64,000 nucleotides of DNA from Eledone cirrhosa (lineage: Eukaryota): the NCBI GenBank assembly GCA_964016885.1, contig OZ024761.1, forward strand, positions 9,238,001-9,302,000. The letters run 5' to 3'. Both the position numbers and the translations under genes were made by a program. Position 1 is the stretch's first letter; every line of letters begins with the position of its first letter. Shown in pieces: positions 10,703 to 57,960 of the stretch. The notes below the pieces were generated by a model. That model saw only the letters and a program-made list of their open reading frames with translations, was not told the DNA's origin and ran no database searches.

Positions 10703-13319
10703 ATAACTTTGAATAACTTTGAAATGTTTTGGCCAGTATTGGCCCAGGCCATGTCTAACTTAATAGCACCACCTGGCGAAGTCTTTCAATTCAGGATTTG
10801 GGCACCATGGCCCATTCGAGAAGAGAATTACTGTTTGCGGAGACATATCCGGGTGTGGGTGGTTTGTCCGGGATTACTTGGAGGAATTTGTCCAAAGACT
10901 TCTTGAATCTTGTGTGGTCAGTTTCTGTTTTGACGTGTCCTGGTGTGATGTTGAAGAGAGCAGGGCCGATTGAGGTGAAATAATTGTGCCGTATTGTTGT
11001 TATGAGTTGCGATTTAGATTTTTGAATGGGACGGATAGCACGGGGCCCAAGCCTTGGGTGTATCTTGAAGGCGATGCCAACATCATTTGGGCAGTGATGA
11101 TGGAACATTTTCCACATCATGCAGATAATATAACGCTCACGGCGACGTTGGAGTGAGTAAAGTTTCAGGTTTTCCAATCGACCCCAGTAGTCAAGGTCTG
11201 ACATGCCATCTATCTTTTTCGTGATTGCCCTTTGAGGAGCTTCAAGTTTCATGATACTTTGTTTCGTGTGGGGAGACCACAGTGGACAACAGTATTCAAG
11301 GTGTGGTCGGGCGAAAGTAGAGAAGAGAAGGATAATGGTGCGGGAATCTCTCGACTGGAAGGTTCTGAGGATCCAGGAACACATTCTGCGGGCCATGTCA
11401 ACTTTGCTGCTTATATGCGTGGTCCAGCTTATGTTGCTGTCCACGGTTACTCCCAAGTCTCTGATGTTGTTAGATGCCACGAGAGTTTCCCCGGAGGGAA
11501 GGGAGTACGGGAGTTTCAGAGCATCCTCTTTTCCAAAGTGGATCAGTTCGAATTTGTCTTCGTTCAGTAACATGTTGTTCTTTTCTGCCCATTGGGTAAC
11601 AGCCAGTAGGTCTGACTGAAGGCTTATCCGGTCATCCACGCCATTGATGACCTTTTGGAGCTTGGAATCATCAGCGAAAATTTTAATGTTGCTGTGTTTG
11701 ATGATGTCAGTGATGTCATTAATATAGATGATGAAGAGAAGTGGGCCCAACACAGTGCCTTGTGGGACTCCACTACTGACTTTGGCTGGGCTTGATTTGA
11801 CTCCCTCAACTACAACATGTTGGGTTCTGTTTGACAGGAAGCTCTTGATCCACTGCAGCAGCTTTCCAGTGACACCAATATTGGACAGCTTTCTCAGTAG
11901 AATGTTATGATCAACCCTGTCAAAGGCCTTGCTGAAATCAAGGTAGATAACATCAGTGTTGGAACCCTCTCCCAAGGCTCTCAAAATGTCATCAAAGTGA
12001 TGCAGTAGTTGCGTCAGGCAATCCCTTCCATTACGGAATCCATGCTGGTTGGAGTTCAGCATATTGTTACTCTCAAGGAAGTGGGTCATTCGCGATCTCA
12101 CCACTCGCTCAAATACCTTAATGATATGAGAGGTGAGTGAGATTGGACGGTAATTCACGGCAAGGGATTTGTTTCCCTTTTTGAAAACTGGGACAACAGA
12201 CTGGGATAGAAGGTTTTCTGGCACATATCCAGCATCCAGTGAGTTCCGCCACAGATTGGCAAGAGGAGAAGCAAGTTGGTGTTGACACGCCTTCAAGACA
12301 CAAGCAGGGAACCTATCGGGACCTACTGCTGAATTATGTTTGATTTCCTTTATTGCCGCCAAGACATCAGGGGCGCCAAACGTTATGTCCGATAAGGTGT
12401 AATGGGGAGTAACATCGCCGATACAGCCCAGATCGGCCATATCAGGATTGCTGAAAACAGAGCAGTATTGTTTCTGCAGTATCTCACCCATGGTTTTAGC
12501 ATTGTCTTGAAGAGTGCCATTTTCATCAATTAGAGGGCCAACAGTAGAGCCAGTGATTTTGTGTTTTTTTGCAAATGAAAAGAACACTTTGGGATTGAGT
12601 TTGATCTTCTCAATGGCCCAGGCCTCTTCAGCTCTTCTCTGATTGTTGATGAGGGACATTATGTTGTTTTGGAGGTTATGTTTTTTAATCTCTAGTGATG
12701 AAATGGCAGTCAAGTTGATGTGTTGCTGCTGACAGTATTTCAGCTTGTTGATTTTTTTGTTCGTTCTCTTAATTTTTCTGATGAGTGTTTTTCTATTTCT
12801 AGGGATTCTGCTCTTAGATTTGTTTATAGTTCTTAATGGGGTGTGTTTAGCACATATGTTTGTAACAGTGTCCACAAAAGTCTGCCAGGACTTTTTGATG
12901 TTAGTGGGTGTATGAGTGTGCGTGAAGGACCAGTCGACATGTGCAAGATCATGACTGATCGCTTCCCAGTTTGCATTGTGGAAATCCATAGCGTCAAACG
13001 GATGGACAGGAGAAATGACATTGGGTTTGTATATTGGACGGTGGAATCTCAGATCACAGAGAACCATGTCATGATCAGAGAGTAGAGTTTTCTCCACTGC
13101 AATATTGTGGATATTGTCAGTGTGATTGCTGAAAATTAAGTCTAGGACGTTTTTGTGGCACCTCGTTGGTTCGAGCACTAGTTGGGATAGGAAGAAATCA
13201 TCCATGAAGTCAAGAAGCGATTCCACAGCTTCCCTGTCAGAGGTTGAGGCAGAAGAACCTGGTGGCAGGGTGTTTGTGGACCAGTCAACTCCGGGGAGGT
13301 TGAAGTCCCCCATCATTAT
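10703..13319 (-). mobile_element. CR1-group LINE, 5'-truncated, inserted in (TA)n
   Basis: ORF2 below, ~90-bp 3' UTR, 3' tail of tandem ttcaaagtta units, microsatellite on both sides. Confidence 0.85.
10791..13316 (-). CDS. LINE ORF2: C-terminal part of APE endonuclease plus reverse transcriptase (841 aa uninterrupted)
   Basis: GDFNLP, LDL, SDH (APE). [59 protein letters not shown] (CR1-type RT). The first 149 aa of the listed ORF are microsatellite. Confidence 0.92.
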
Positions 13320-13352
13320 ATATATATATACACATATATATACATACATATA

Positions 13353-13440
<88 letters not shown>

Positions 13441-13499
13441 CACATATATATACATATATATATGTACATACATATATATACATATATATATGTACATAC

Positions 13500-13534
<35 letters not shown>

Positions 13535-13633
13535 CATATATATACATATATATATATACATACATACATACATATAAACACATACATACATATCTATATA
13601 TATACACACATATATGTATATATATATATATAT

Positions 13634-13696
<63 letters not shown>

Positions 13697-13776
13697 AACA
13701 CATATACATATATATATATATATATATATACATATATATATGTATATATATATATATACACATATATATACATATA

Positions 13777-14377
13777 TGGTGGCTGCCAACTCGTTTTCGA
13801 GTACGGCCACTACTTTATATCCATGTAGGAGAACCCCTACCGATGCGCTGAACGAGTGTGACTTCTTAGTCCAGCCAGCGACTTGAAAACTCTGGTACAA
13901 ACACTACACTTGTGACAATTATTGACACATAGTGCTGGTACCATGTGAGGACAAGTGCAGAGAGATCTCCAGATATAAAGCAATGCCTGTGCCGTGAAGC
14001 TTTTATAGTGAGCAAAGGCACTGCACAAAGCCAGTCCCACTCTCTTAACCAAGATGATATTTACCAAAAAGAAGAACAAGTCAACATCATTGGATACCAT
14101 CAGGGTTGCAGGTGTTATATCAGAGTTTTCCTTCTCCTAGAATTCTGCCTTGACAAAGGCTAAGGGGTCATCTCTCCCTGTGATTTTGGATGGCCATTGA
14201 CTCTTAAGAGCTCCTTTGCCCTTTGACAGGTTTTGTTTTTAGTCCTGCAGGATGTCCAAAGTAACCCTCCTCACCAAGAAACCTTGGTGGGGTTGCCAGT
14301 TTAGTCGCCAACGTCCCGACCATGAGACAGGTTGTACTGGGATACATGTTACCAGTAGCACCAACTGGTGACCTGAC
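13777..14377 (-). mobile_element. Non-autonomous bipartite RTE-derived element (~600 bp)
   Basis: RTE-like 5' region aggagaaggaaaactctga. 3' part encodes C2H2 knuckle [22 protein letters not shown]. Four copies in window. Confidence 0.7.
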
Positions 14378-21329: not shown

Positions 21330-22049
21330 GTACATAAATATAAATATGTATATAAATGTATATAAATATTTATCTCTCTCAATATATATATATACGATAT
21401 TAAATAAATGGAAACTATATTTATAAAACCATATTTATTTCATTATATATATTTCAGGGATATCATATTAACAATATGCTATGCCTTCCTCAGACAAAAT
21501 ACAATATAAACAGTTTTATAGATAAATAGATTTGACATACCGTACAACATCGACTTGTATTTGAAAAGTTGAATTGGCAGTGAAAAAATTGTAAACAGAA
21601 AGAAAGAAAGAGAGAAAAAAAGGAAAGAAAGACAGAAAACGAAGAAAAAGAAGAAAAAGAAGAAATGCATGGAACAAAATAGAGAGATGGAAAGATAGAT
21701 AAAGAGAAGAACTTCATGTAAAGAAACAGAGAGAGATATATATATAGAGAGGAAATAGATAGAGATAGATATATATATAGAAAAATAGGTAGTTGGACAT
21801 CCGTTGAGTAAACGTATCAATGATACATTTATTTATTTATTTATTTATTTAGCTCTAGTATTAATGTAAGGGAGATATATGTGGTTAGGAGAGAAACCAG
21901 CTGTTATATAGAGAGAAAAATGAAAAGTAACCAGACATAGGCGAGGCATAAAAACCCTATGTTTTAATGTAGATGTATTAGTATGTTTAAAAACCAGGCA
22001 CTATATTGTAAATATCAGTATTCATGAATGAATACTGATATTTACAATA

Positions 22050-24164
22050 AGGAGAATCAGGTGGCGAGCATTCCACTTTGATAAATCTAATATAAATGAA
22101 AATGTCTCGGACTTAAACAAAGTTTTCAAATCTAAAAGAAATCCACCCCCTAACAAACTTTTATCTGACTTTGAAAACGATATAATTTCTATCATACAAG
22201 GGGTCAAATTCAAGAGAAACTTCAAAGGCCAGGAATATCTGAAAGGCATTAAGGATAATATTGAGAGCTTAGAGAAAACTGAGAAGATCTTGGTGAAATC
22301 TGACAAGACCAACAACCTCTATGGAGTGCAGAAAGACATGTATAATGGCCTCATACTGAAGGAACTGAGGAAAAAGTACAAGGTAGCAGATAAGGCCGAG
22401 CTTGAGAAAATGAATGTCGAAGCATCTTGTATAATGCACGAGTTGGAAATTGAGAACAGAACACAACCTTTCGTGCCCAGGAAACCGAAGATCAATATGA
22501 AAGATCACAAGAGGAATTTTGAAAATGACTTGCCAGTTAGATTGATCGCACCATCAAAATCGGACCTGGGCAAATTAAGCAAAAACATTCTTGACAGGGT
22601 GATACAGCAAATTAAGAACTTGGATTGTTTATCTAACCTGAGCTTGTGGAAGGGAACTGGAGAGGTTGTTGAGTGGTTTAAGCAAATTAAATATAACAAT
22701 AATAATAAGTTTATTCAACTTGATATTGCTAACTATTATTCTTCTATTACCCCTAATCTACTAAATAAGGCACTAAATTACGCATTCAAACATACAGACC
22801 TAACTAGCAATGAAATGCATATTATATTATCGGCTAGGAAAACATTGATAGAATTTAATGACCAACTATGGACCAGAGCAGATAGAGATAGCAATTTTGA
22901 CATTACTATGGGATCATCCGACTCAGCTCAGGTAACTGACCTTGTGGGCTTATTTTTAATCAATTCGCTACATAGGAAAATACCTGGTACTACCGGAGGT
23001 TTATATAGAGATGACATGCTTTTACTTATTGATAATAATAACTCTGAACTAAATAGAAAATGTAAACAAATTACACAATTTTTTAATTACTTTAATCTTA
23101 AAATAGAAATTGAGAACAACCATAGAATAGTCAATTTCCTAGATATAACATTAAATCTCAACACATGTCTTCACTATCCTTTTCACAAGTTGAATGAAAA
23201 CTTAAACTATGTCAGCTTTAACTCTAACCACCCCAGATCTGTCAAAAACACTATAGTAAACTCTGTTCAAAAACGTATCTCTAGAATCTCGTCTAATAGA
23301 AAGATTTTCGACGAAAAAGCCCAGTACTACAATGAAGCGTTAGCTAGAGCAGGATATACTGATAAGATTATGTACATAGATAATGATAGACAAACTAAAC
23401 AAAATAACAACTATTTTAATTACGGCAACAACCTTAACAACTATAATAGAAAGCATTACAATAATTCCAAAGGCCAAAAAAGAAATAGAACTAGGAACAT
23501 AATTTGGTTTGCCCCCCCTTTCTCACTAAACATTAAAACCCACATCGCTAAACTATTTTTTAAAGCTCTTGATAATCGCTTCCCTAGAACACATAGGTAT
23601 CACTCAATTTTCAATAGACATACTATAAAATTAACCTACTCATCCACCAAAAATTTAGCACAAAATATTAATAGAATAAATAATAGGAACTTAAAACCTA
23701 GTGATAATAGCATAAATAATATACAAGTTAACAAATGTAACTGTAGAGATAGATCTAAATGTCCGTTAAATAACAACTGCTTAGTTAAAAATATAGTATA
23801 CAATTGTAATGTTAAAACTGACTCTAATTCTTTTAACTACGTCGGTTCCACATCGACGGAATTTAAACTTCGCTATAATAACCACAAGAATTCTTTCACA
23901 GATCCAAGCAAAAAATCTTCAACGGCACTATCAGGCGTACTCTGGCAACTTAAGCTAGATAACGTTAGATATTCGACGGCTTGGAATATAGTCTCAAGAG
24001 GGATTCCTTTTAATTCATCCTCTGAGACATGTGACCTCTGCGCAGAGGAGATATTCTTTATACTAAAATCTAAAAATTCCCTTAATCTACGGACAAATTT
24101 ATTCAGTTGCTGCAAACATAGATTAAACTCAACTTTTAAATATAAATTTAAATTTAAAATGTAG
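22050..24164 (+). CDS. PLE reverse transcriptase plus GIY-YIG endonuclease, 5'-truncated, no internal stops
   Basis: Frame open from the junction (RRIRWRAF). KSDKT, KDHK..PVRLI, LDIANYYSSI, ITMGS, GLYRDD, FLDITL, SNHP, CNCR..CPL..C, IVY..YVGST..FKLRYNNHK, CDLCAEE. YRDD motif suggests a Naiad-like clade (inference). Confidence 0.92.
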   Translation, partial: RRIRWRAFHFDKSNINENVSDLNKVFKSKRNPPPNKLLSDFENDIISIIQGVKFKRNFKGQEYLKGIKDNIESLEKTEKILVKSDKTNNLYGVQKDMYNGLILKELRKKYKVADKAELEKMNVEASCIMHELEIENRTQPFVPRKPKINMKDHKRNFENDLPVRLIAPSKSDLGKLSKNILDRVIQQIKNLDCLSNLSLWKGTGEVVEWFKQIKYNNNNKFIQLDIANYYSSITPNLLNKALNYAFKHTDLTSNEMHIILSARKTLIEFNDQLWTRADRDSNFDITMGSSDSAQVTDLVGLFLINSLHRKIPGTTGGLYRDDMLLLIDNNNSELNRKCKQITQFFNYFNLKIEIENNHRIVNFLDITLNLNTCLHYPFHKLNENLNYVSFNSNHPRSVKNTIVNSVQKRISRISSNRKIFDEKAQYYNEALARAGYTDKIMYIDNDRQTKQNNNYFNYGNNLNNYNRKHYNNSKGQKRNRTRNIIWFAPPFSLNIKTHIAKLFFKALDNRFPRTHRYHSIFNRHTIKLTYSSTKNLAQNINRINNRNLKPSDNSINNIQVNKCNCRDRSKCPLNNNCLVKNIVYNCNVKTDSNSFNYVGSTSTEFKLRYNNHKNSFTDPSKKSSTALSGVLWQLKLDNVRYSTAWNIVSRGIPFNSSSETCDLCAEEIFFILKSKNSLNLRTNLFSCCKHRLNSTFKYKFKFKM

Positions 24165-25468
24165 TATATTTAGTTTGATTTATAATTATTTGGGAAACTA
24201 GCCGATAAATCTTTCGATTTCTTCTTTTTATTCTTCTTTTTCTTTTTAGTTTTATTTAAACATTCTTCATGAAAAATTAAACTACCCTAAAAGTTGATGC
24301 TCCAAATATTTCGAATAAACGTTACACTAGATAAACTTCTATATTAAATATAAGAACACATGTAGACCAAATGGGCATCCTAAACTTTTTGAAATGATTT
24401 TTGCTAGATGCGATTTGATAAATAATTTTTAGCTTTATCTGTTTTCGACTCTGATGCTTATAATGAACTTGGCAATATATTGTCAATTAATTTTGAAGGG
24501 TTGATCTTTGTGGTTTATTTTTATTATTGTAGTATTTTCTAATATTTTTATTTTTAATATGTAATATTTTTTCGTAATATTTTTTAGTTTTCTATTTTAT
24601 TATTATTTATTATTATTATTATTGTTATTTTTTGGTTTTTGTTTCTGATATATTTTTTATTAATATATTGAAATCTGCTCTCTATTTCTGCTTGATAGAT
24701 AATCTTGTAGAGTAAAGACAAGAATAGTAGTAATATAGACTCTCTATATATATGTATATATATACACATATATGTATACTTAAATTTTTATAGCACAATG
24801 AGAATGTTTTCCGTGTGAACTTAGGGTTTGCAGAGTTGATCATGTAAATTCACATCGATGTTTGTAGTTATCATATAAACATATGAATTTTTTAAAACTA
24901 AACATAAGATCATTACTTTTCACACATTATGGATACGTGTCTCATTCATGAATACTGATATTTACAATATAGTGCCTGGTTTTTATACATACTAATACTT
25001 CTACATTAAAACATAGGGTTTTTATGCCTCGCCTATGTCTGGTTATTTTTCATTTTTCTCTCTATATAACAGCTGGTTTCTCTCCTAACCACATATATCT
25101 CCCTTACATTAATACTAGAGCTAAATAAATAAATAAATAAATAAATGTATCATTGATACGTTTACTCAACGGATGTCCAACTACCTATTTTTCTATATAT
25201 ATATCTATCTCTATCTATTTCCTCTCTCTATATATATCTCTCTCTGTTTCTTTACATGAAGTTCTTCTTGTATCTATCTTCTCTTTATCTATCTTTCCAT
25301 CTCTCTATTTTGTTCCATGCATTTCTTCTTTTTCTTCTTTTTCTTCGTTTTCTGTCTTTCTTTCCTTTTTTTTCTCTCTTTCTTTCTTTCTGTTTACAAT
25401 TTTTTCACTGCCAATTCAACTTTTCAAATACAAGTCGATGTTGTACGGTATGTCAAATCTATTTATCT

Positions 25469-25566
25469 ATAAAACTGTTTATATTGTATTTTGTCTGAGG
25501 AAGGCATAGCATATTGTTAATATGATATCCCTGAAATATATATAATGAAATAAATATGGTTTTATA
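25469..25566 (+). ncRNA. Hammerhead ribozyme in PLE pseudo-LTR (mirror copy near 21422-21519, -)
   Basis: CTGAGGA aggcatagcatattgttaatatgatatccct GAAA tatata TA, closed by ataaaactgt/atggttttat. Sister copies have CTGATGA. Confidence 0.6.
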
Positions 25567-25737
25567 AATATAGTTTCCATTTATTTAATATCGTAAATAT
25601 ACTCCAAATACTTGTCGAGTGCTTTTATATCAGTTATAAATATTTACTAGTTGTAACCCAACAATTTAAATATAACTTTCCATATATATATATATATATA
25701 TATTATTATTATGTAATAAACAACATAAGGCAATTAT

Positions 25738-25795: not shown

Positions 25796-26293
25796 AAATC
25801 CTGGTTTGTTTATTGAATATGGATTCTAAAAACAAAAATGCAATCTATATGAAAGTGAGGCTGGAAAAGGGAGAAGGAAAGGAAAAATAAAATAAAACTA
25901 CACATGCAAACACACACAAAAAAACACAAAAGCATACTTACACACACATACATATATACATATATATAAATGTACGCATACACATATACATATATGTTTC
26001 CTTGAAAACTCGTATGACTCTAAAACCCGGTCCGCCTGTGTGGTTACATACAGACTAGCTGACACTCACTGTAAAGTGTCTAGTGAAAAGCTGAGTACAT
26101 GTACATATGTATACATGTGTGTATTTATATGCATACTAATACTTCCGTATACATATGTAGATGTACACTTTAACTTAATTGTTTAAGCGTCAGTCATACA
26201 AAAGTGAGTTAGAAGCGAAACGAAATTTAATTTCGTTTCGTTATTTGTTTTTATCGTTTCCGCTGAACCGGTGCGTACAATGACTCACGTTCT

Positions 26294-26301
26294 ATGCAAA
26301 T
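26294..26301 (+). promoter_or_regulatory. Octamer ATGCAAAT (POU/Oct site, snRNA-type distal element candidate)
   Basis: tatgcaaattag is identical in both retrozyme-like families, upstream of the ribozyme. Confidence 0.5.
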
Positions 26302-26386
26302 TAGTCTACCCACTACTAATTTTCATAGAAAAAGCATATAACGATATGTGCTTTTACAATTCTCCAGAGAAGCCGGAAGATGGGTA

Positions 26387-26431
26387 AATATTGCTGATGA
26401 GATGTAATAACATCGAAACTAGTCCAATATT
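26387..26431 (+). ncRNA. Minimal type I hammerhead ribozyme
   Basis: aatattg CTGATGA gatgt-aata-acatc GAAA ctag TC caatatt. Perfect stems I and II, palindromic ACTAGT stem III, GUC cleavage triplet. Confidence 0.92.
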
Positions 26432-26731
26432 CCTGTCTGGCCCTCTGGAGAATAGAGGAAATGTGTTTCCTTGAAAACTCGTATGACTCTAAAACCCGGT
26501 CCGCCTGTGTGGTTACATACAGACTAGCTGACACTCACTGTAAAGTGTCTAGTGAAAAGCTGAGTACATGTACATATGTATACATGTGTGTATTTATATG
26601 CATACTAATACTTCCGTATACATATGTAGATGTACACTTTAACTTAATTATTTATATATATTTATTTATATATATATATATATTTATTTATATATATATA
26701 TATTTTTATTTATATATATATATATTTATTT

Positions 26732-26799
<68 letters not shown>

Positions 26800-26806
26800 C
26801 ATATAT

Positions 26807-26867
<61 letters not shown>

Positions 26868-27211
26868 TATATATATAAGTATATGCAAAAGTTCTATTTA
26901 AATTGTTGGGATACAACAAGCAAATATTTTTATAACTGATATAAAGCACTCGACAAGTATTTGGAGTAAATATACGATATTAACAAATGGAAACTATATT
27001 TATAAAACCATATCTATTTTATTATACATATTTCAAGGATACCATGTTAAATTATGGTATGCTTTCATCAGACAAAATACAATATATACCAGTTTTATAA
27101 ATAAATTTTGACATACCCTTTCAAAATGCAATCGTTACTTATGGAAGACATCAGGGATATTGGATTTGTTTATCTTAGTAAGTCATTGTGTTACGGAGAA
27201 GGAAAAAAAAA

Positions 27212-28753: not shown

Positions 28754-28824
28754 TATTTTATCTGATGAGAACGCAAATATCATCCCATGATGATATTTGT
28801 TTTTGAAATGCGCATAATAAAATA
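28754..28824 (+). ncRNA. Type I hammerhead ribozyme within foldback element 28617-28945
   Basis: tattttat CTGATGA gaacgcaaatatcatc-ccat-gatgatatttgttttt GAAA tgcgca TA ataaaata. Palindromic ATGCGCAT stem III. Confidence 0.85.
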
Positions 28825-50113: not shown

Positions 50114-50168
<55 letters not shown>

Positions 50169-51025
50169 TAAACAAATAATGAATAAAACAATGAAACAGT
50201 TCCTTATATTAAACAAAAAAAGTTCATTATTTAACGATCGTTTCTAGGATATATATGTGTTAGAATTGGCATGTATATTCAACAGATCTATGTATAAAAT
50301 TATACAAAATTATACAAACTATCAAGATTAAATATACATACCAACACATATATACGCCGTCTTCAGAAATAATGAAATATATTTATTGATAATAACAACA
50401 ATTCAAAATTTCAGGTCCGTTTGGGAACAAAATTGACCAATGAAAATACAAAAGGTTTTATGCAGTTCGGTGTGTGTATATACATGTAACTACCCCGTAC
50501 TCATATTTATACAAAAATGTATGCTCAACATGCATACGCTTGCCAAAAAGATGCATGCAAATACAAAATTTCAAGGTTAATGTCTCTGTAAGTTTATAAT
50601 GCACAGATAAGATGCGTATAGACACATAAATATGAAATAAGTGTATACACATATTCTCATACTCACACATATCCGTACAATCACACACACGCGCGCGTAT
50701 ATGCATAAACATACACATAATTACGAACATACACACACACACATACCCCCACACACATATATATATATGTGGATATAATATTATCATAAGCACATGGATA
50801 TTAATTCACTCACATAAACACTGCCACACACATTTAGATCAAGATACAGAAATTAGGTGGGAGGGGGGGAGAGGTCAGTATTCAACGGTTTGGGCAGACT
50901 GCTTATTTATAGATGTATCTATAAACTAAGAAATAAAAAATAAAAATTAAAAAGGAAAGAAAAGAAAAAGAAAAAAGAGAAAAAAGAAATATATCAAGAA
51001 AATATATATATATATATACATACAT

Positions 51026-51082
<57 letters not shown>

Positions 51083-51164
51083 CACACATCTACACTTAGA
51101 ACATACATACACACACATATATAAACATATACATATACACACATACACACATATACACACATAC

Positions 51165-51204
<40 letters not shown>

Positions 51205-51511
51205 GTATATACACATATAATCACACATACATATATAGACACACATATATATTCACATACACGCACATATACATACACATACATACTTATATACATACAG
51301 ATATACACATACATACCTATATATACACACAAATACATACATACATACATACATACATACATACACACAAATACTTACGCATCCATATATCGGTATATAC
51401 ATACAAACACCACTACACTCTCACACAACTCAGACATACAAAGAAAAAGGTATATACCTATACACATATACATATACAAATAGAGATACATATACATATA
51501 TATATATATAT

Positions 51512-51548
<37 letters not shown>

Positions 51549-51740
51549 CACATATACACACATACATATACATACACATACATACATGTACACACACATA
51601 CATATACATACATACACACATACACACATACATATATAGTCATACACACACATACACCTACACGAACATACACATACACATATATAAAGATATATATACA
51701 CACACACACATACACACACACACATATATATAAAAAATAA

Positions 51741-51785
<45 letters not shown>

Positions 51786-52609
51786 CACATATACATAGAC
51801 ATACATGTAGATACATACACATACATACATACATATACACACACATATATATATATATATACACACATAGACACATACATACATACACACACAACATACA
51901 TAACACACATATATACCCATACATAGACAAAGATATATATTCATACATACATACGCACTTACATATACTCATATATACAAATACATACGCATCCATATAT
52001 GCGTATATACATACAAACACCACTACACTCTCACACAACTCAGACATACAAAGAAAAAGGTATATACATATACATATATACACACATTAATAGAGATATA
52101 TATACACACATATATATATATATATACACATACATTTATATATATACACCTACACACACATACAACCATAAACACACATACAAACACACACATACACACA
52201 TATATACATACATATATATACACACACACAAAAAAAACACACATACACATATATATTTTTACACATATATATACACATATATATACATATACACACCCCC
52301 ACATATACACACATACACATAAGTTATATTATAATAATAAATAATATATATATATATATATATACGAATATAGACATATATACACACATAGATATACACA
52401 TATATATACATATACACACACACACACACACACTCACATATATATGTGCGCACACGCACACATATACACATACACACATATACACATAAACACATACATG
52501 TGCATACATGTACATACACACATATACCCACATAGATACGAAGATAGACATATATATAGAGAGACATACATATATATACACACATATATATATATATACA
52601 TACATACAT

Positions 52610-54000: not shown

Positions 54001-54406
54001 TTAATTAGGTTTATAATATTTAAATGTTTTTTTTAGTTTATGATTACACGATATAATTAATTCCTGTCGTTTATTTAATAGGATATCCTTAGATTTCATT
54101 ATTTCAAATAGTTCTTGGGAACATAATCTACATTCATTTCTATTATTTTGATAAGGGGTGGCTCTTTTGAGCACACTCCAGGTCAAATCATATTCTATAT
54201 TCTTATTTTTATAACTATTGATTTTTTCTGCTAGAGATGTTGTATTAGCCAGTGCGGCATTTTTAAAACTATGCTTGTGGGTATTAAACCTTGTCTTAAA
54301 ATTGTTAGAGGTAGCTCCTATATATGAGCAAATAGAATCTTTAGTTTTAACATTACATTTATAGACTATGTTGTTAACAAGACAATTCCCTTTTAATGGG
54401 CAGTTT
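54001..54406 (-). pseudogene. PLE GIY-YIG endonuclease fragment
   Basis: NCPLKGNCLVNNIVYKC..YIGATSNNFKTRFNTHK..CRLCSQE..LLNKR..CNH. Confidence 0.88.
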
Positions 54407-54649: not shown

Positions 54650-55718
54650 ATGTATGTATGTATATATATATATATGTGTGTATATATATGTATGTCTCTC
54701 TATATATATGTCTATCTTCGTATCTATGTGGGTATATGTGTGTATGTACATGTATGCACATGTATGTGTTTATGTGTATATGTGTGTATGTGTATATGTG
54801 TGCGTGTGCGCACATATATATGTGAGTGTGTGTGTGTGTGTGTGTATATGTATATATATGTGTATATCTATGTGTGTATATATGTCTATATTCGTATATA
54901 TATATATATATATTATTATTTATTATTATAATATAACTTATGTGTATGTGTGTATATGTGGGGGTGTGTATATGTATATATATGTGTATATATATGTGTA
55001 AAAATATATGTGTATGTGTGTTTTTTTTGTGTGTGTGTATATATATGTATGTATATATGTGTGTATGTGTGTGTTTGTATGTGTGTTTATGGTTGTATGT
55101 GTGTGTGGGTGTATATATATAAATGTATGTGTATATATATATATATATATGTGTATATGTATCTCTATTAATGTGTGTATATATGTATATGTATATACCT
55201 TTTTCTTTGTATGTCTGAGTTGTGTGAGAGTGTAGTGGTGTTTGTATGTATATACGCATATATGGATGCGTATGTATTTGTATATATGAGTATATGTAAG
55301 TGCGTATGTATGTATGAATATATATCTTTGTCTATGTATGGGTATATATGTGTGTTATGTATGTTGTGTGTGTATGTATGTATGTGTCTATGTGTGTATA
55401 TATATATATATATATGTGTGTATATGTATGTATGTATGTGTATGTATGTACATGTATGTCTATGTATATGTGTATGTATATATATATATATATATATATC
55501 TTTATTTTTTATATATATGTGTGTGTGTGTATGTGTGTGTGTGTATATATATCTTTATATATGTGTATGTGTATGTTCGTGTAGGTGTATGTGTGTGTAT
55601 GACTATATATGTATGTGTGTATGTGTGTATGTATGTATATGTATGTGTGTGTACATGTATGTATGTGTATGTATATGTATGTGTGTATATGTGTATGTGT
55701 ATATATATATATATATAT

Positions 55719-55750
<32 letters not shown>

Positions 55751-56026
55751 GTATCTCTATTTGTATATGTATATGTGTATAGGTATATACCTTTTTCTTT
55801 GTATGTCTGAGTTGTGTGAGAGTGTAGTGGTGTTTGTATGTATATACCGATATATGGATGCGTAAGTATTTGTGTGTATGTATGTATGTATGTCTGTATG
55901 TATTTGTGTGTATATATAGGTATGTATGTGTATATCTGTATGTATATAAGTATGTATGTGTATGTATATGTGCGTGTATGTGTATATATATGTGTGTCTA
56001 TATATATATGTGTGATTATATGTGTA

Positions 56027-56073
<47 letters not shown>

Positions 56074-56155
56074 GTATGTGTGTATATGTGTGTATGTGTG
56101 TATATGTATATGTTTATATATGTGTGTGTATGTATGTTCTAAGTGTAGATGTGTG

Positions 56156-56212
<57 letters not shown>

Positions 56213-56862
56213 ATGTATGTATATATATATATATATTTTCTTGATATATTTCTTTTTTCTCTTTTTTCTTTTTCTTTTCTTTCCTTTTTAATTTTTATTT
56301 TTTATTTCTTAGTTTATAGATACATCTATAAATAAGCAGTCTGCCCAAACCGTTGAATACTGACCTCTCCCCCCCTCCCACCTAATTTCTGTATCTTGAT
56401 CTAAATGTGTGTGGCAGTGTTTATGTGAGTGAATTAATATCCATGTGCTTATGATAATATTATATCCACATATATATATATGTGTGTGGGGGTATGTGTG
56501 TGTGTGTATGTTCGTAATTATGTGTATGTTTATGCATATACGCGCGCGTGTGTGTGATTGTACGGATATGTGTGAGTATGAGAATATGTGTATACACTTA
56601 TTTCATATTTATGTGTCTATACGCATCTTATCTGTGCATTATAAACTTACAGAGACATTAACCTTGAAATTTTGTATTTGCATGCATCTTTTTGGCAAGC
56701 GTATGCATGTTGAGCATACATTTTTGTATAAATATGAGTACGGGGTAGTTACATGTATATACACACACCGAACTGCATAAAACCTTTTGTATTTTCATTG
56801 GTCAATTTTGTTCCCAAACGGACCTGAAATTTTGAATTGTTGTTATTATCAATAAATATATT

Positions 56863-57014
56863 TCATTATTTCTGAAGACGGCGTATATATGTGTTGGTAT
56901 GTATATTTAATCTTGATAGTTTGTATAATTTTGTATAATTTTATACATAGATCTGTTGAATATACATGCCAATTCTAACACATATATATCCTAGAAACGA
57001 TCGTTAAATAATGA
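56863..57014 (+). ncRNA. Type I hammerhead with ~115-nt stem II (mirror copy 50224-50375, -)
   Basis: tcattatt(t) CTGAAGA ...atatatgtgtt / aacacatatat... GAAA cgatcg TTA aataatga. Palindromic AACGATCGTT. Confidence 0.75.
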
Positions 57015-57960
57015 ACTTTTTTTGTTTAATATAAGGAACTGTTTCATTGTTTTATTCATTATTTGTTTAATATTTTATCTTGACTCTGTATACCGTTTAT
57101 CTTTCACCGAAAGTGATTTTTCATTACATCTCTTCTTTCCATGATATCCGGAATACATTGAGTTCTTCATACGGATTTGACACTACCGTAAACTCTTGGT
57201 AGATTTATCTACATATATATATATATATATATATATAACAGACACACACACACACGCACATATATATATATAACACACACACACACTCATATATACATAT
57301 ATATATATTATATCAGATGTGAGAAAAACCACAAACCCTCCATCTCAACTCTACTTTTGAAAAGCAGAAGAACTGTGAAAACCGGTAAAGGAACCAAATA
57401 AATATATATTTATATAAGACTCCAGTTGCATTTTTGATTTCATCTGTTTTCCTTATATTTATATATATATATATATATATAAATGAAGTAATTCCGTCGG
57501 AAAAGTCCAGGAAAAAAGAGTGCTCTATGTAGGTAACAGAGCTTAATAGTTATGTAATAAACAACATAAGGCAATTATTCCATTACAATGGAATAATTGC
57601 CTTATGTTGTTTATTACATAACTATATATATATATATACCAAGTAAGTATGTTTTGAAACAGTGAGCGAGTTTGAAATTAGAAAATATATAGCTTTCACC
57701 GTATTTTTAACTAAAGGAATTTTAGCTTGATAACTCGCTAAGAATGTAGTTTCTAATTTGAATGGAAAGAGACGGGTGATGTGTTGGTATAATGGTAGCA
57801 CAGTGGTCGCGATAACCACAGATGTGGGTTCGACTCCCATGTACGTCAATACTCATCTTTTTCCATTTATCTGAGGGTTCTAAACCCCGTTATCAAGCTA
57901 AAATTCCTTTAGTTAAAAATACGGTGAAAGCTATATATTTTCTAATATATATATACTTAT

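Follow-up and report, generated by a model that had tools for sequence, protein, structure and literature searches.

A truncated hammerhead repeat in Eledone cirrhosa, likely inserted by a Penelope-like reverse transcriptase-endonuclease

Animal retrozymes were described in a 2020 review, in the part that deals with them, as seemingly lacking promoters and any conserved motif pointing to a helper (PMC7761336), and a 2026 preprint argues from co-occurrence and terminal-repeat phylogeny for Penelope-like helpers (10.64898/2026.07.22.740005). A Penelope protein has been shown in vitro to cleave AT-rich DNA on both strands and to initiate at two internal positions, which delimit the tail seen in the genome (Frangieh 2024, PMC11167929); PMC8557442 describes arms that are inverted and truncated at the 5' end, as well as tails and a Hydra clade with (TA)n as its insertion target. 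Here we analyze a hammerhead repeat, the S copy, at positions 25995-26649 of a 64,000-nucleotide (nt) stretch of the Eledone cirrhosa genome (contig OZ024761.1, positions 9,238,001 to 9,302,000, forward strand; hereafter the window). By its sequence, this repeat is a copy of a large family of retrozymes without long terminal repeats (LTRs), a known class, and the family has two lineages, S and A. Because members of the family end at two fixed sites (sites 1 and 2) against (TA)n, we regard the S copy as a truncated, non-coding hammerhead repeat that was likely inserted by a Penelope-like reverse transcriptase (RT)-endonuclease, probably from an RNA circle. Within the literature searched, the two-site Penelope footprint on retrozyme ends and the presence of a box matching host promoters are new. 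The search returned no paper on either feature in retrozymes, although supplementary data may bear on both, and neither 'ribozyme' nor 'retrozyme' was found in the main text of a paper on Octopus vulgaris repeats (PMC13282606).

25995..26649, + strand: lineage S retrozyme insertion, 1.40 units of 469 base pairs (bp), 5'-truncated, with its 3' end at site 1 against (TA)n
30797..33467, - strand: lineage A array, 5.7 units of 466 bp, five whole hammerheads

The S copy begins at about monomer position 40, numbered from the cleavage site, and a perfect 186-bp repeat (25995-26180 = 26464-26649) sets its period at 469, exactly the 1.4-unit tandem that an earlier note on this DNA had reported. Short tandem units with a ribozyme in each are found in the 469-bp arrays of the family; the S copy has a single ribozyme and so is unable to release a monomer or yield a circle, which arrays such as 30797-33467 could do. 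The S unit holds no open reading frame (ORF) of at least 120 amino acids (aa), and the sole overlapping frame (26401-26901) extends into a TA tract. The mapped junctions show no terminal repeats at the insertion ends, and we found neither LTRs nor coding capacity. All 40 scored full matches are identical to the S copy over 294 bp, which marks the copy itself as very young within an old family.

Insertion ends at two fixed sites

Monomers were mapped on 85 stretches, 83 of which were counted after two duplicates had been dropped; the loci sampled were the first matches on C1 and a further 30 chosen by box pattern. From the 3' ends we excluded those at edges of fetched stretches, those at monomer position 460 or beyond, where alignments break at the unit boundary, and 13 in the internal TA-rich part. 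Of the 110 ends then scored, 100 fall within two small intervals (41 of 43 in S, 59 of 67 in A), which lie at monomer positions 225-231 and 297-299 in S and 245-255 and 302-310 in A and cover 4% and 7% of the scorable unit. The two sites are 62-72 nt apart and occupy aligned positions in S and A, and 93 of the 100 ends located at them adjoin (TA)n. In the S copy they read as follows.

26180..26186, + strand: site 1 (monomer 225-231), which recurs at 26649-26654, where the S copy has its 3' junction
26252..26254, + strand: site 2 (monomer 297-299), inside the ttatcgttt box

The array of lineage A, whose units show zero mismatches between them, has its 3' end at site 2, likewise against (TA)n, and carries a 21-bp duplication at its 5' end.

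Many insertions consist of two arms joined head to head. We counted 48 such junctions. Seven touch an edge; of the others, both outer ends lie at a site in 25, only one does in 13 (the other being often an alignment break) and neither does in three. Without exception, the 25 insertions with two sited ends combine site 1 with site 2 (p=6e-8), and 5' ends are scattered over the unit. The marks of a Penelope-dependent non-autonomous element, a two-site tail and an inverted 5'-truncated arm, are thus both present. Moreover, most arms (90 of 100) extend across the cleavage junction, 40 of them by more than one unit; hence the template cannot be a cut linear monomer and must be a circle or an uncut multimer. 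One arm has at least 44 units. Thirteen head-to-head S loci were compared, and in most of those with private variants the two arms share them (e.g., L004, L144, L146, L148, L152, L169 and L172). Retrozyme insertions of two lineages therefore carry, at nucleotide resolution, the two-site signature known biochemically for a Penelope protein.

The ribozyme, its fold and its family

The hammerhead of the S copy is of type I, with the conserved core and the loop 1 / loop 2 architecture of non-LTR retrozymes. A scan of the whole window with Rfam was dominated by microsatellite matches to microRNA models, and the following parts come from a 181-bp search and from folding.

26378..26438, + strand: type I hammerhead, Rfam HH9, E=1.3e-6, 31.8 bits (below the Rfam gathering score of 52)
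26379-26384 with 26432-26437, + strand: distal stem I
26388-26393 with 26425-26430, + strand: stem I
26394-26400, + strand: CUGAUGA core, followed by stem II (26401-26414) and GAAA
26360-26369 with 26443-26452, + strand: outer helix, extending stem I across the cleavage site (z=-4.6, 0/200 shuffles)
26204-26211 with 26281-26288, + strand: helix gtgagtta/tgactcac, enclosing a hairpin (26215-26241) and site 2

The GUC that the earlier note had placed at 26422-26424 is there, and cleavage is predicted after 26424. Since stem III consists of one A-U pair, closed by a palindromic CUAG loop, cleavage would most likely be dimeric; the computed energy of an ACUAGU self-duplex is -6.2 kcal/mol, and weak palindromic stem III arrangements have been described as working in dimers (PMC4209133, PMC7229834). 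The outer helix (26360..26452) would hold the cut ends together. For comparison, eight of nine predicted Xenopus elements failed to self-cleave in vitro (Li, Clavereau and Pollet 2026, 10.64898/2026.07.22.740005).

Closed into circles, the monomers are predicted to be highly self-paired, as in non-LTR retrozymes (z=-10.3 for S, of which 69% is paired, and z=-9.4 for A, each against 60 shuffles). In these folds most boxes shared by the lineages are helix arms (taattttcata with tatgcaaattag, actcac with gtgagt), and aatttcgttt lies within a hairpin. Pairing is kept in 93% of cells across 13 natural copies, and six pairs, all in stems I and II, have changed on both sides, compared with 0-3 such pairs in slid controls. 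These stems read as the earlier note had written them, and the selection on RNA structure that it proposed is supported to this extent. Most of the compensatory changes represent one event, the split of S from A, so that the shuffle control overstates them; independent ones are few and comprise stem II in older S copies, where an A-U pair has become U-A, and stem I in the oldest A copies. Covariation had also been claimed for the outer helix. It sits in the same place in both folds, but its columns do not align one by one, and the two versions are better called equivalent than demonstrably covarying.

The S and A monomers align end to end, with 304 of 499 columns identical. This supports the view of them as sister lineages and makes the earlier description of their sequences as 'largely different' an overstatement. 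The shared boxes, whose order had been named beforehand as a point to check, are colinear, and against 1000 dinucleotide shuffles the box region reaches z=9 (global) and z=16 (local) and the 5' part z=7-8. In the 3.0-Gb genome the core pattern GCTGAYGA-N14-16-GAAACTAGT occurs 39,467 times (control, 0). The two youngest subfamilies account for 9,957 of these cores, including 1,138 of the exact young S form. The branch between S and A measures about 0.64 changes per column, and subfamilies form a ladder of divergence from the column majority, from 7.7-7.8% (oldest) through 4.6% to 2.1% in A and from 3.0% to 1.3% in S (164 distinct segments, at most 25 aligned per group, 38 rows in the tree). An old, diversified family, as opposed to a chance satellite, is what the earlier note had proposed, and these numbers bear it out. 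Two of its further points are not supported: older A units lie 422-430 bp apart and natural monomers span 444-540 bp, which speaks against selection on unit length, and the motifs agatgggtaaa, CTGATGA, ttcctgt and taattttcata, thought invariant, are common only to the two youngest subfamilies, with older A copies carrying AGGAAGGTATA, CTGACGA, ttcctttg and taatatgcata in their place.

Relative to the oldest A form, 11 of 22 changes in young A go to the S state, in the stem before the ribozyme and the 3' arm of a hairpin (p=0.08 against one third), and either convergence or recombination might be responsible. No third lineage with the same core was found among the matches listed for 50 loci fetched for that purpose; divergent core matches lack stem I and look like chance, and a metagenome scan gave two matches, both chance, inside apparent bacterial coding sequence. 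As for arrangement in the genome, an older S copy abuts an A copy of the oldest type (L119), S and A copies lie less than 1 kb apart in another locus (L135), and a U1 gene has an S ribozyme less than 1.5 kb away (L041). Variant units recur with a period of 2 or 3 in some arrays (L117, L179, C1:14.044-14.051 Mb); either the circle templates were dimers and trimers, or local amplification took place later.

A host promoter-like box upstream of the ribozyme

Between site 2 and the ribozyme lies a hairpin whose 5' arm, the TATGCAAATTAG box, matches an upstream element of host small nuclear RNA (snRNA)-type genes.

26293..26304, + strand: TATGCAAATTAG box, an exact match to the host -78 element of U6, U6atac, MRP and tRNA-Sec genes; 5' hairpin arm
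26316..26327, + strand: 3' arm of the same hairpin (taattttcata box), which varies between subfamilies
26335..26342, + strand: TATA-like element, 42 nt from the box start

The host element TATG(C/G)(A/T)AAT(T/G)AG stands at -77 to -79, with TATA at -30, in all five distinct loci with intact upstream sequence (three distinct U6, U6atac and RNase MRP). The exact TATGCAAATTAG 12-mer also stands at -80 in both tRNA-Sec loci, which were found afterwards and took no part in building the matrix. In one U6 variant an insertion has moved both box and TATA, and no box is present in the pseudogene-like copies listed. U1, U2, RNase P, 7SK and SRP genes do not have the element; TCAGT takes its place in U1 and U2 (at -56 to -58), in RNase P and in the one 7SK gene (at -63), and SRP genes have neither. 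The host thus has two snRNA-type promoter classes, one with TCAGT near -57 (U1, U2 and RNase P; -63 in 7SK) and one with TATGCAAATTAG near -78 (U6, U6atac, MRP and tRNA-Sec); the loci compared are L031-L045, L180, L211-L214 and L300 versus L046-L048, L108, L114 and L301-L302. Many host loci share a distal CCCTT element near -260, and finding RNase P and 7SK in the U1 class was unexpected. The taattttcata box was considered as an insect-like proximal sequence element and rejected, since it has no fixed upstream position in U1, U2 or U6 genes.

The retrozyme box agrees at 12 of 12 positions with a U6 locus and both tRNA-Sec loci. Its score was reached by 1 of 1500 and 0 of 1500 shuffled monomers and by 0 of 128 tiles of the window. 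We compared 116 upstream regions, selected for the ribozyme core and by a permissive filter for the box. Of these, 80 carry the exact box and 11 more a version with one change common to a subfamily, and in 101 a TATA-like word lies 42-43 nt from the box start. This spacing is constant, whereas the distance from box to ribozyme varies (80, 88 and 100, by 20 nt between lineages), and in the oldest A subfamily TATATA is kept while the hairpin around it is lost.

Three features weigh against a promoter. The box start and TATA are 47-49 nt apart in every host gene, compared with 42-43 here; polymerase III would terminate at a T5 run in the unit (26248-26252); and since the box doubles as a hairpin arm, selection at the RNA level could keep it. 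The spacing, 5 bp shorter, might mean polymerase II only by analogy with TCAGT, which stands nearer to the gene in U1 and U2 than in 7SK, although sequence and not spacing has been credited for polymerase choice (PMC1761439). On balance, TATGCAAATTAG and TATA have about an even chance of forming an internal snRNA-type promoter.

Somewhat less probable is that the TATGCAAATTAG hairpin is a signal in the RNA for the helper protein, or a plain structural arm, and that transcription reads through from host promoters. The hairpin is placed some 40 nt beyond site 2 in the 3' direction, and it is on this side that PAc, a Penelope-like element of the Poseidon clade, requires RNA to be active (PMC11167929). 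In all subfamilies 11-12 bp of the hairpin form, the TATA spacing is off by about 5 bp, and the 2020 review, where it treats animals, saw no promoters in retrozymes (PMC7761336). A structural role fits less well with the way the hairpin has changed. None of its pairs has changed on both sides, and the 5' arm is the fixed one (the 80 exact and 11 nearly exact regions above), while the 3' arm switches between two states (58/116 and 32/116). In addition, the ATGC(A/T)AAT core is absent from all six loci scanned of the P0001 family of Penelope-like elements described below, and a chance match to a position-fixed host element is expected about once in 1500. Promoter and helper-signal roles are not exclusive. 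The match allows a simple test of autonomous expression and defines a U6-class promoter of the host.

Template, helper and known relatives

These observations suggest a cycle whose steps differ in their support. An internal promoter of TATGCAAATTAG and TATA just upstream of the ribozyme, for which the chances are even, would transcribe tandem copies, and this position means that each read-through transcript carries the promoter of the next unit. Judging from structure and known relatives, the hammerheads would cut at GUC, most likely as ACUAGU dimers; the long stem I would hold the ends, and a host ligase would close a 469-nt circle. A Penelope-type protein, an assignment we make with considerable confidence given the footprint, would then nick a (TA)n tract on both strands and, on each strand, start reverse transcription from a different one of two internal sites, which are 62-72 nt apart. 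The mapped arms show that the two complementary DNAs run back through the ribozyme junction for variable lengths and are joined head to head, or that a single arm survives, as in the S copy. The helper is fairly probably of the Hydra clade, which in this genome shares the (TA)n target and the two-site ends.

A candidate for the class of such a helper lies in the window itself, 300 bp upstream of the S copy, and a second Penelope-like family is present there too.

21390..25687, + strand: near-complete Hydra-clade Penelope-like element, candidate helper class
about 21390-22031: inverted arm of this element, before the ORF
22032-24164, + strand: P0001 ORF, 710 aa, 5'-truncated, Hydra motifs
24942-25687, + strand: terminal repeat, with a minimal hammerhead at 25495
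29687 (-), 35979 (+) and 58024 (+): second Penelope-like family, terminal repeats carrying a type I hammerhead of canonical form
35646-35954, - strand: GIY-YIG piece

The P0001 protein has RWR (not RWK), DKT, YRDD, CxCX5C (CNCRDRSKC), CxxC (CDLC), CxH (CKH) and, for the C-terminal GIY-YIG, YVGST. With these motifs, and with two ends of its own about 85 nt apart and both against (TA)n, the element is close to the description of the Hydra clade. P0001 had no Pfam hit, and its closest named match is an Octopus bimaculoides protein (41% identical). Its family is young and often intact and uses the same target as the retrozymes: 137 of 137 scored matches are 97-100% identical, and many have open frames of 745 aa. 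The second family has 772 candidates, head-to-head pairs and two ends about 67 nt apart; its hammerhead carries U-U at the base of stem II and a longer stem III with a CTAG loop.

Several points tell against insertion from a circle by a helper of this kind. Cleavage, expression and the circle are predictions from sequence. The site intervals were drawn after the data had been seen, on loci sampled as described above, and scoring at both ends failed for 23 of the 48 head-to-head junctions. In two loci (L006 and L008) the arms share only part of their variants. The retrozymes show no sequence similarity to the terminal repeats or tails of three Penelope-like families, and tail lengths differ (62 and 72 in retrozymes, 67 and 85 in Penelope-like elements), so that the footprint points to a helper class and to no family within it. 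Uncut RNA was the main template in the in vitro system and ribozyme cleavage was not needed (Frangieh 2024, PMC11167929); a linear multimer could hence give the same arms. Two attempts at a closer link were abandoned. Derivation of the retrozyme tails from a resident Penelope tail gave, in nine comparisons, nothing better than 109 of 1000 shuffles, and a look-alike of site 1 in the second Penelope family, based on one locus, did not hold.

The same element and helper could operate on an uncut, linear multimeric transcript, with the ribozyme serving another step and circles as by-products. We regard this as possible but clearly the less favored template. Ribozyme mutants left PAc insertion in vitro unaltered (PMC11167929), the weak stem III should make monomer cleavage poor (PMC4209133), and homogeneous source arrays exist, some with variants of period 2 or 3. 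Yet the core and stems I and II have been kept across about 0.64 changes per column, tandem copies permit dimeric cleavage, and circles are the form in which related elements of coral, mussel and axolotl accumulate (PMC7229834). The arm of at least 44 units also favors a circle, although later local amplification could explain its length.

Far less probable is a satellite spread at the DNA level, by unequal exchange or extrachromosomal circles, in which case the ribozyme would be left over from the terminal repeat of a Penelope element. Local amplification is discussed by Li et al. 2026 (10.64898/2026.07.22.740005), and there are long homogeneous arrays, with 44 units on C1 and about 31 of the older S form. 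Such processes do not produce 3' ends that are fixed and paired while the 5' ends are scattered; young copies at dispersed loci are identical, and compensatory change has gone on inside the lineages, as in stem II of older S copies. DNA-level processes are largely refuted for dispersal and may account for growth of the longest arrays. Least probable of all is mobilization by a long interspersed nuclear element (LINE) through twin priming. In its favor, a T5 run before site 2 of S might make that site a polymerase III termination point, and a LINE ORF with RT and AP endonuclease is present in the window. Against it, no T run is found at site 1, and in A it is CAATTTAT, not a T run, that precedes site 2; the arms overlap and include the region 3' of site 2 that a transcript ending there would lack; and poly(A) is absent from the mapped junctions. 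Twin priming gives a variable internal second site and non-overlapping arms.

The cycle favored here, insertion by a Penelope-like enzyme from a circle, has a tentative extension. The retrozyme may be a self-sufficient parasitic RNA circle, with a host U6/tRNA-Sec box captured and re-spaced for read-through of whole units, dimeric hammerheads that cut and close, and two fixed start sites for rolling-circle reverse transcription by a Hydra-clade enzyme on both target strands. If this is true, it would supply a promoter and a mechanistic link to a helper for animal retrozymes, both left open by the 2020 review, and two lineages would be riding the system in parallel through successive waves. Rolling-circle, target-primed reverse transcription would then have a natural case that makes inserts of many kilobases. 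Since the retrozyme ends carry the two-site signature, the identity of the helper can be tested directly in vitro, with start sites already named and young enzymes as candidates.

The surrounding region is a pile-up of (TA)n-targeted insertions. Further hammerhead-like motifs at 27071 (-), 27492 (+), 28762 (+), 29536 (+), 47760 (-), 47245 (-) and 260 (-) are mostly of the minimal type, in which stem II is long, and belong to short remnants of Penelope-like elements next to TA tracts. A long inverted repeat (50160-52317 / 54941-57078, arms 95-96% alike) encloses a Penelope-type GIY-YIG fragment (54016-54402) and is probably another head-to-head insertion. Elsewhere in the genome, an A copy adjoins an element of the P0001 family (L209). 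The window also contains a LINE (a 1007-aa frame at 10791-13814, - strand, with AP endonuclease and RVT_1 domains), a tRNA-Ser(CGA)-like gene (57777-57849, + strand) inside an apparent inverted repeat that adjoins the 58024 element, and a 130-bp tandem repeat (38171-38966) with a 20-nt word in common with the element at 28762.

Among hammerhead repeats with a promoter of their own, the Sm-alpha repeat of schistosomes has one of the internal tRNA type. The Sm-alpha promoter is described as a functional polymerase III promoter (PMC2220036). Newt satellite 2, the precedent for the promoter reading, is likewise a tandem repeat with a hammerhead, a weak palindromic stem III and an internal snRNA-type promoter (Coats 1994, via PMC2220036); the newt promoter was shown by experiment and assigned to polymerase II, whereas the box here resembles the polymerase III class (U6, tRNA-Sec) by its sequence and stands closer to TATA.

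Penelope-like elements provide the second comparison. Poseidon PAc (PMC11167929) and the Hydra clade (PMC8557442) likewise show a head-to-head inverted arm, 5' truncation, an optional tail with two start sites, an AT-rich or (TA)n target and a type I hammerhead. The retrozyme differs in having no ORF, a tail of 62-72 nt (30-40 in theirs) that lies far from the ribozyme (225-310 nt after the cut), a canonical instead of a minimal hammerhead, and arms many units long.

Two-site 3' ends and a host promoter box are not described for metazoan non-LTR retrozymes in the portions of the two main sources that treat them (PMC7229834; 10.64898/2026.07.22.740005). The unit is slightly longer than the 150-450 bp quoted in 2020 for metazoan retrozymes (PMC7229834), and homology to transposable elements, which 24 of 57 Xenopus families have, was not found here to the terminal repeats of the three Penelope-like families compared. 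In most other respects the family conforms to metazoan non-LTR retrozymes. These likewise have tandem non-coding units, a type I hammerhead, low G+C, a highly self-paired predicted circle, thousands of copies and Penelope-like elements in the same genome (PMC7229834; 10.64898/2026.07.22.740005). Axolotl retrozymes, too, form two coexisting families, one of which has a U-U mismatch at the base of stem II like that of lineage A.
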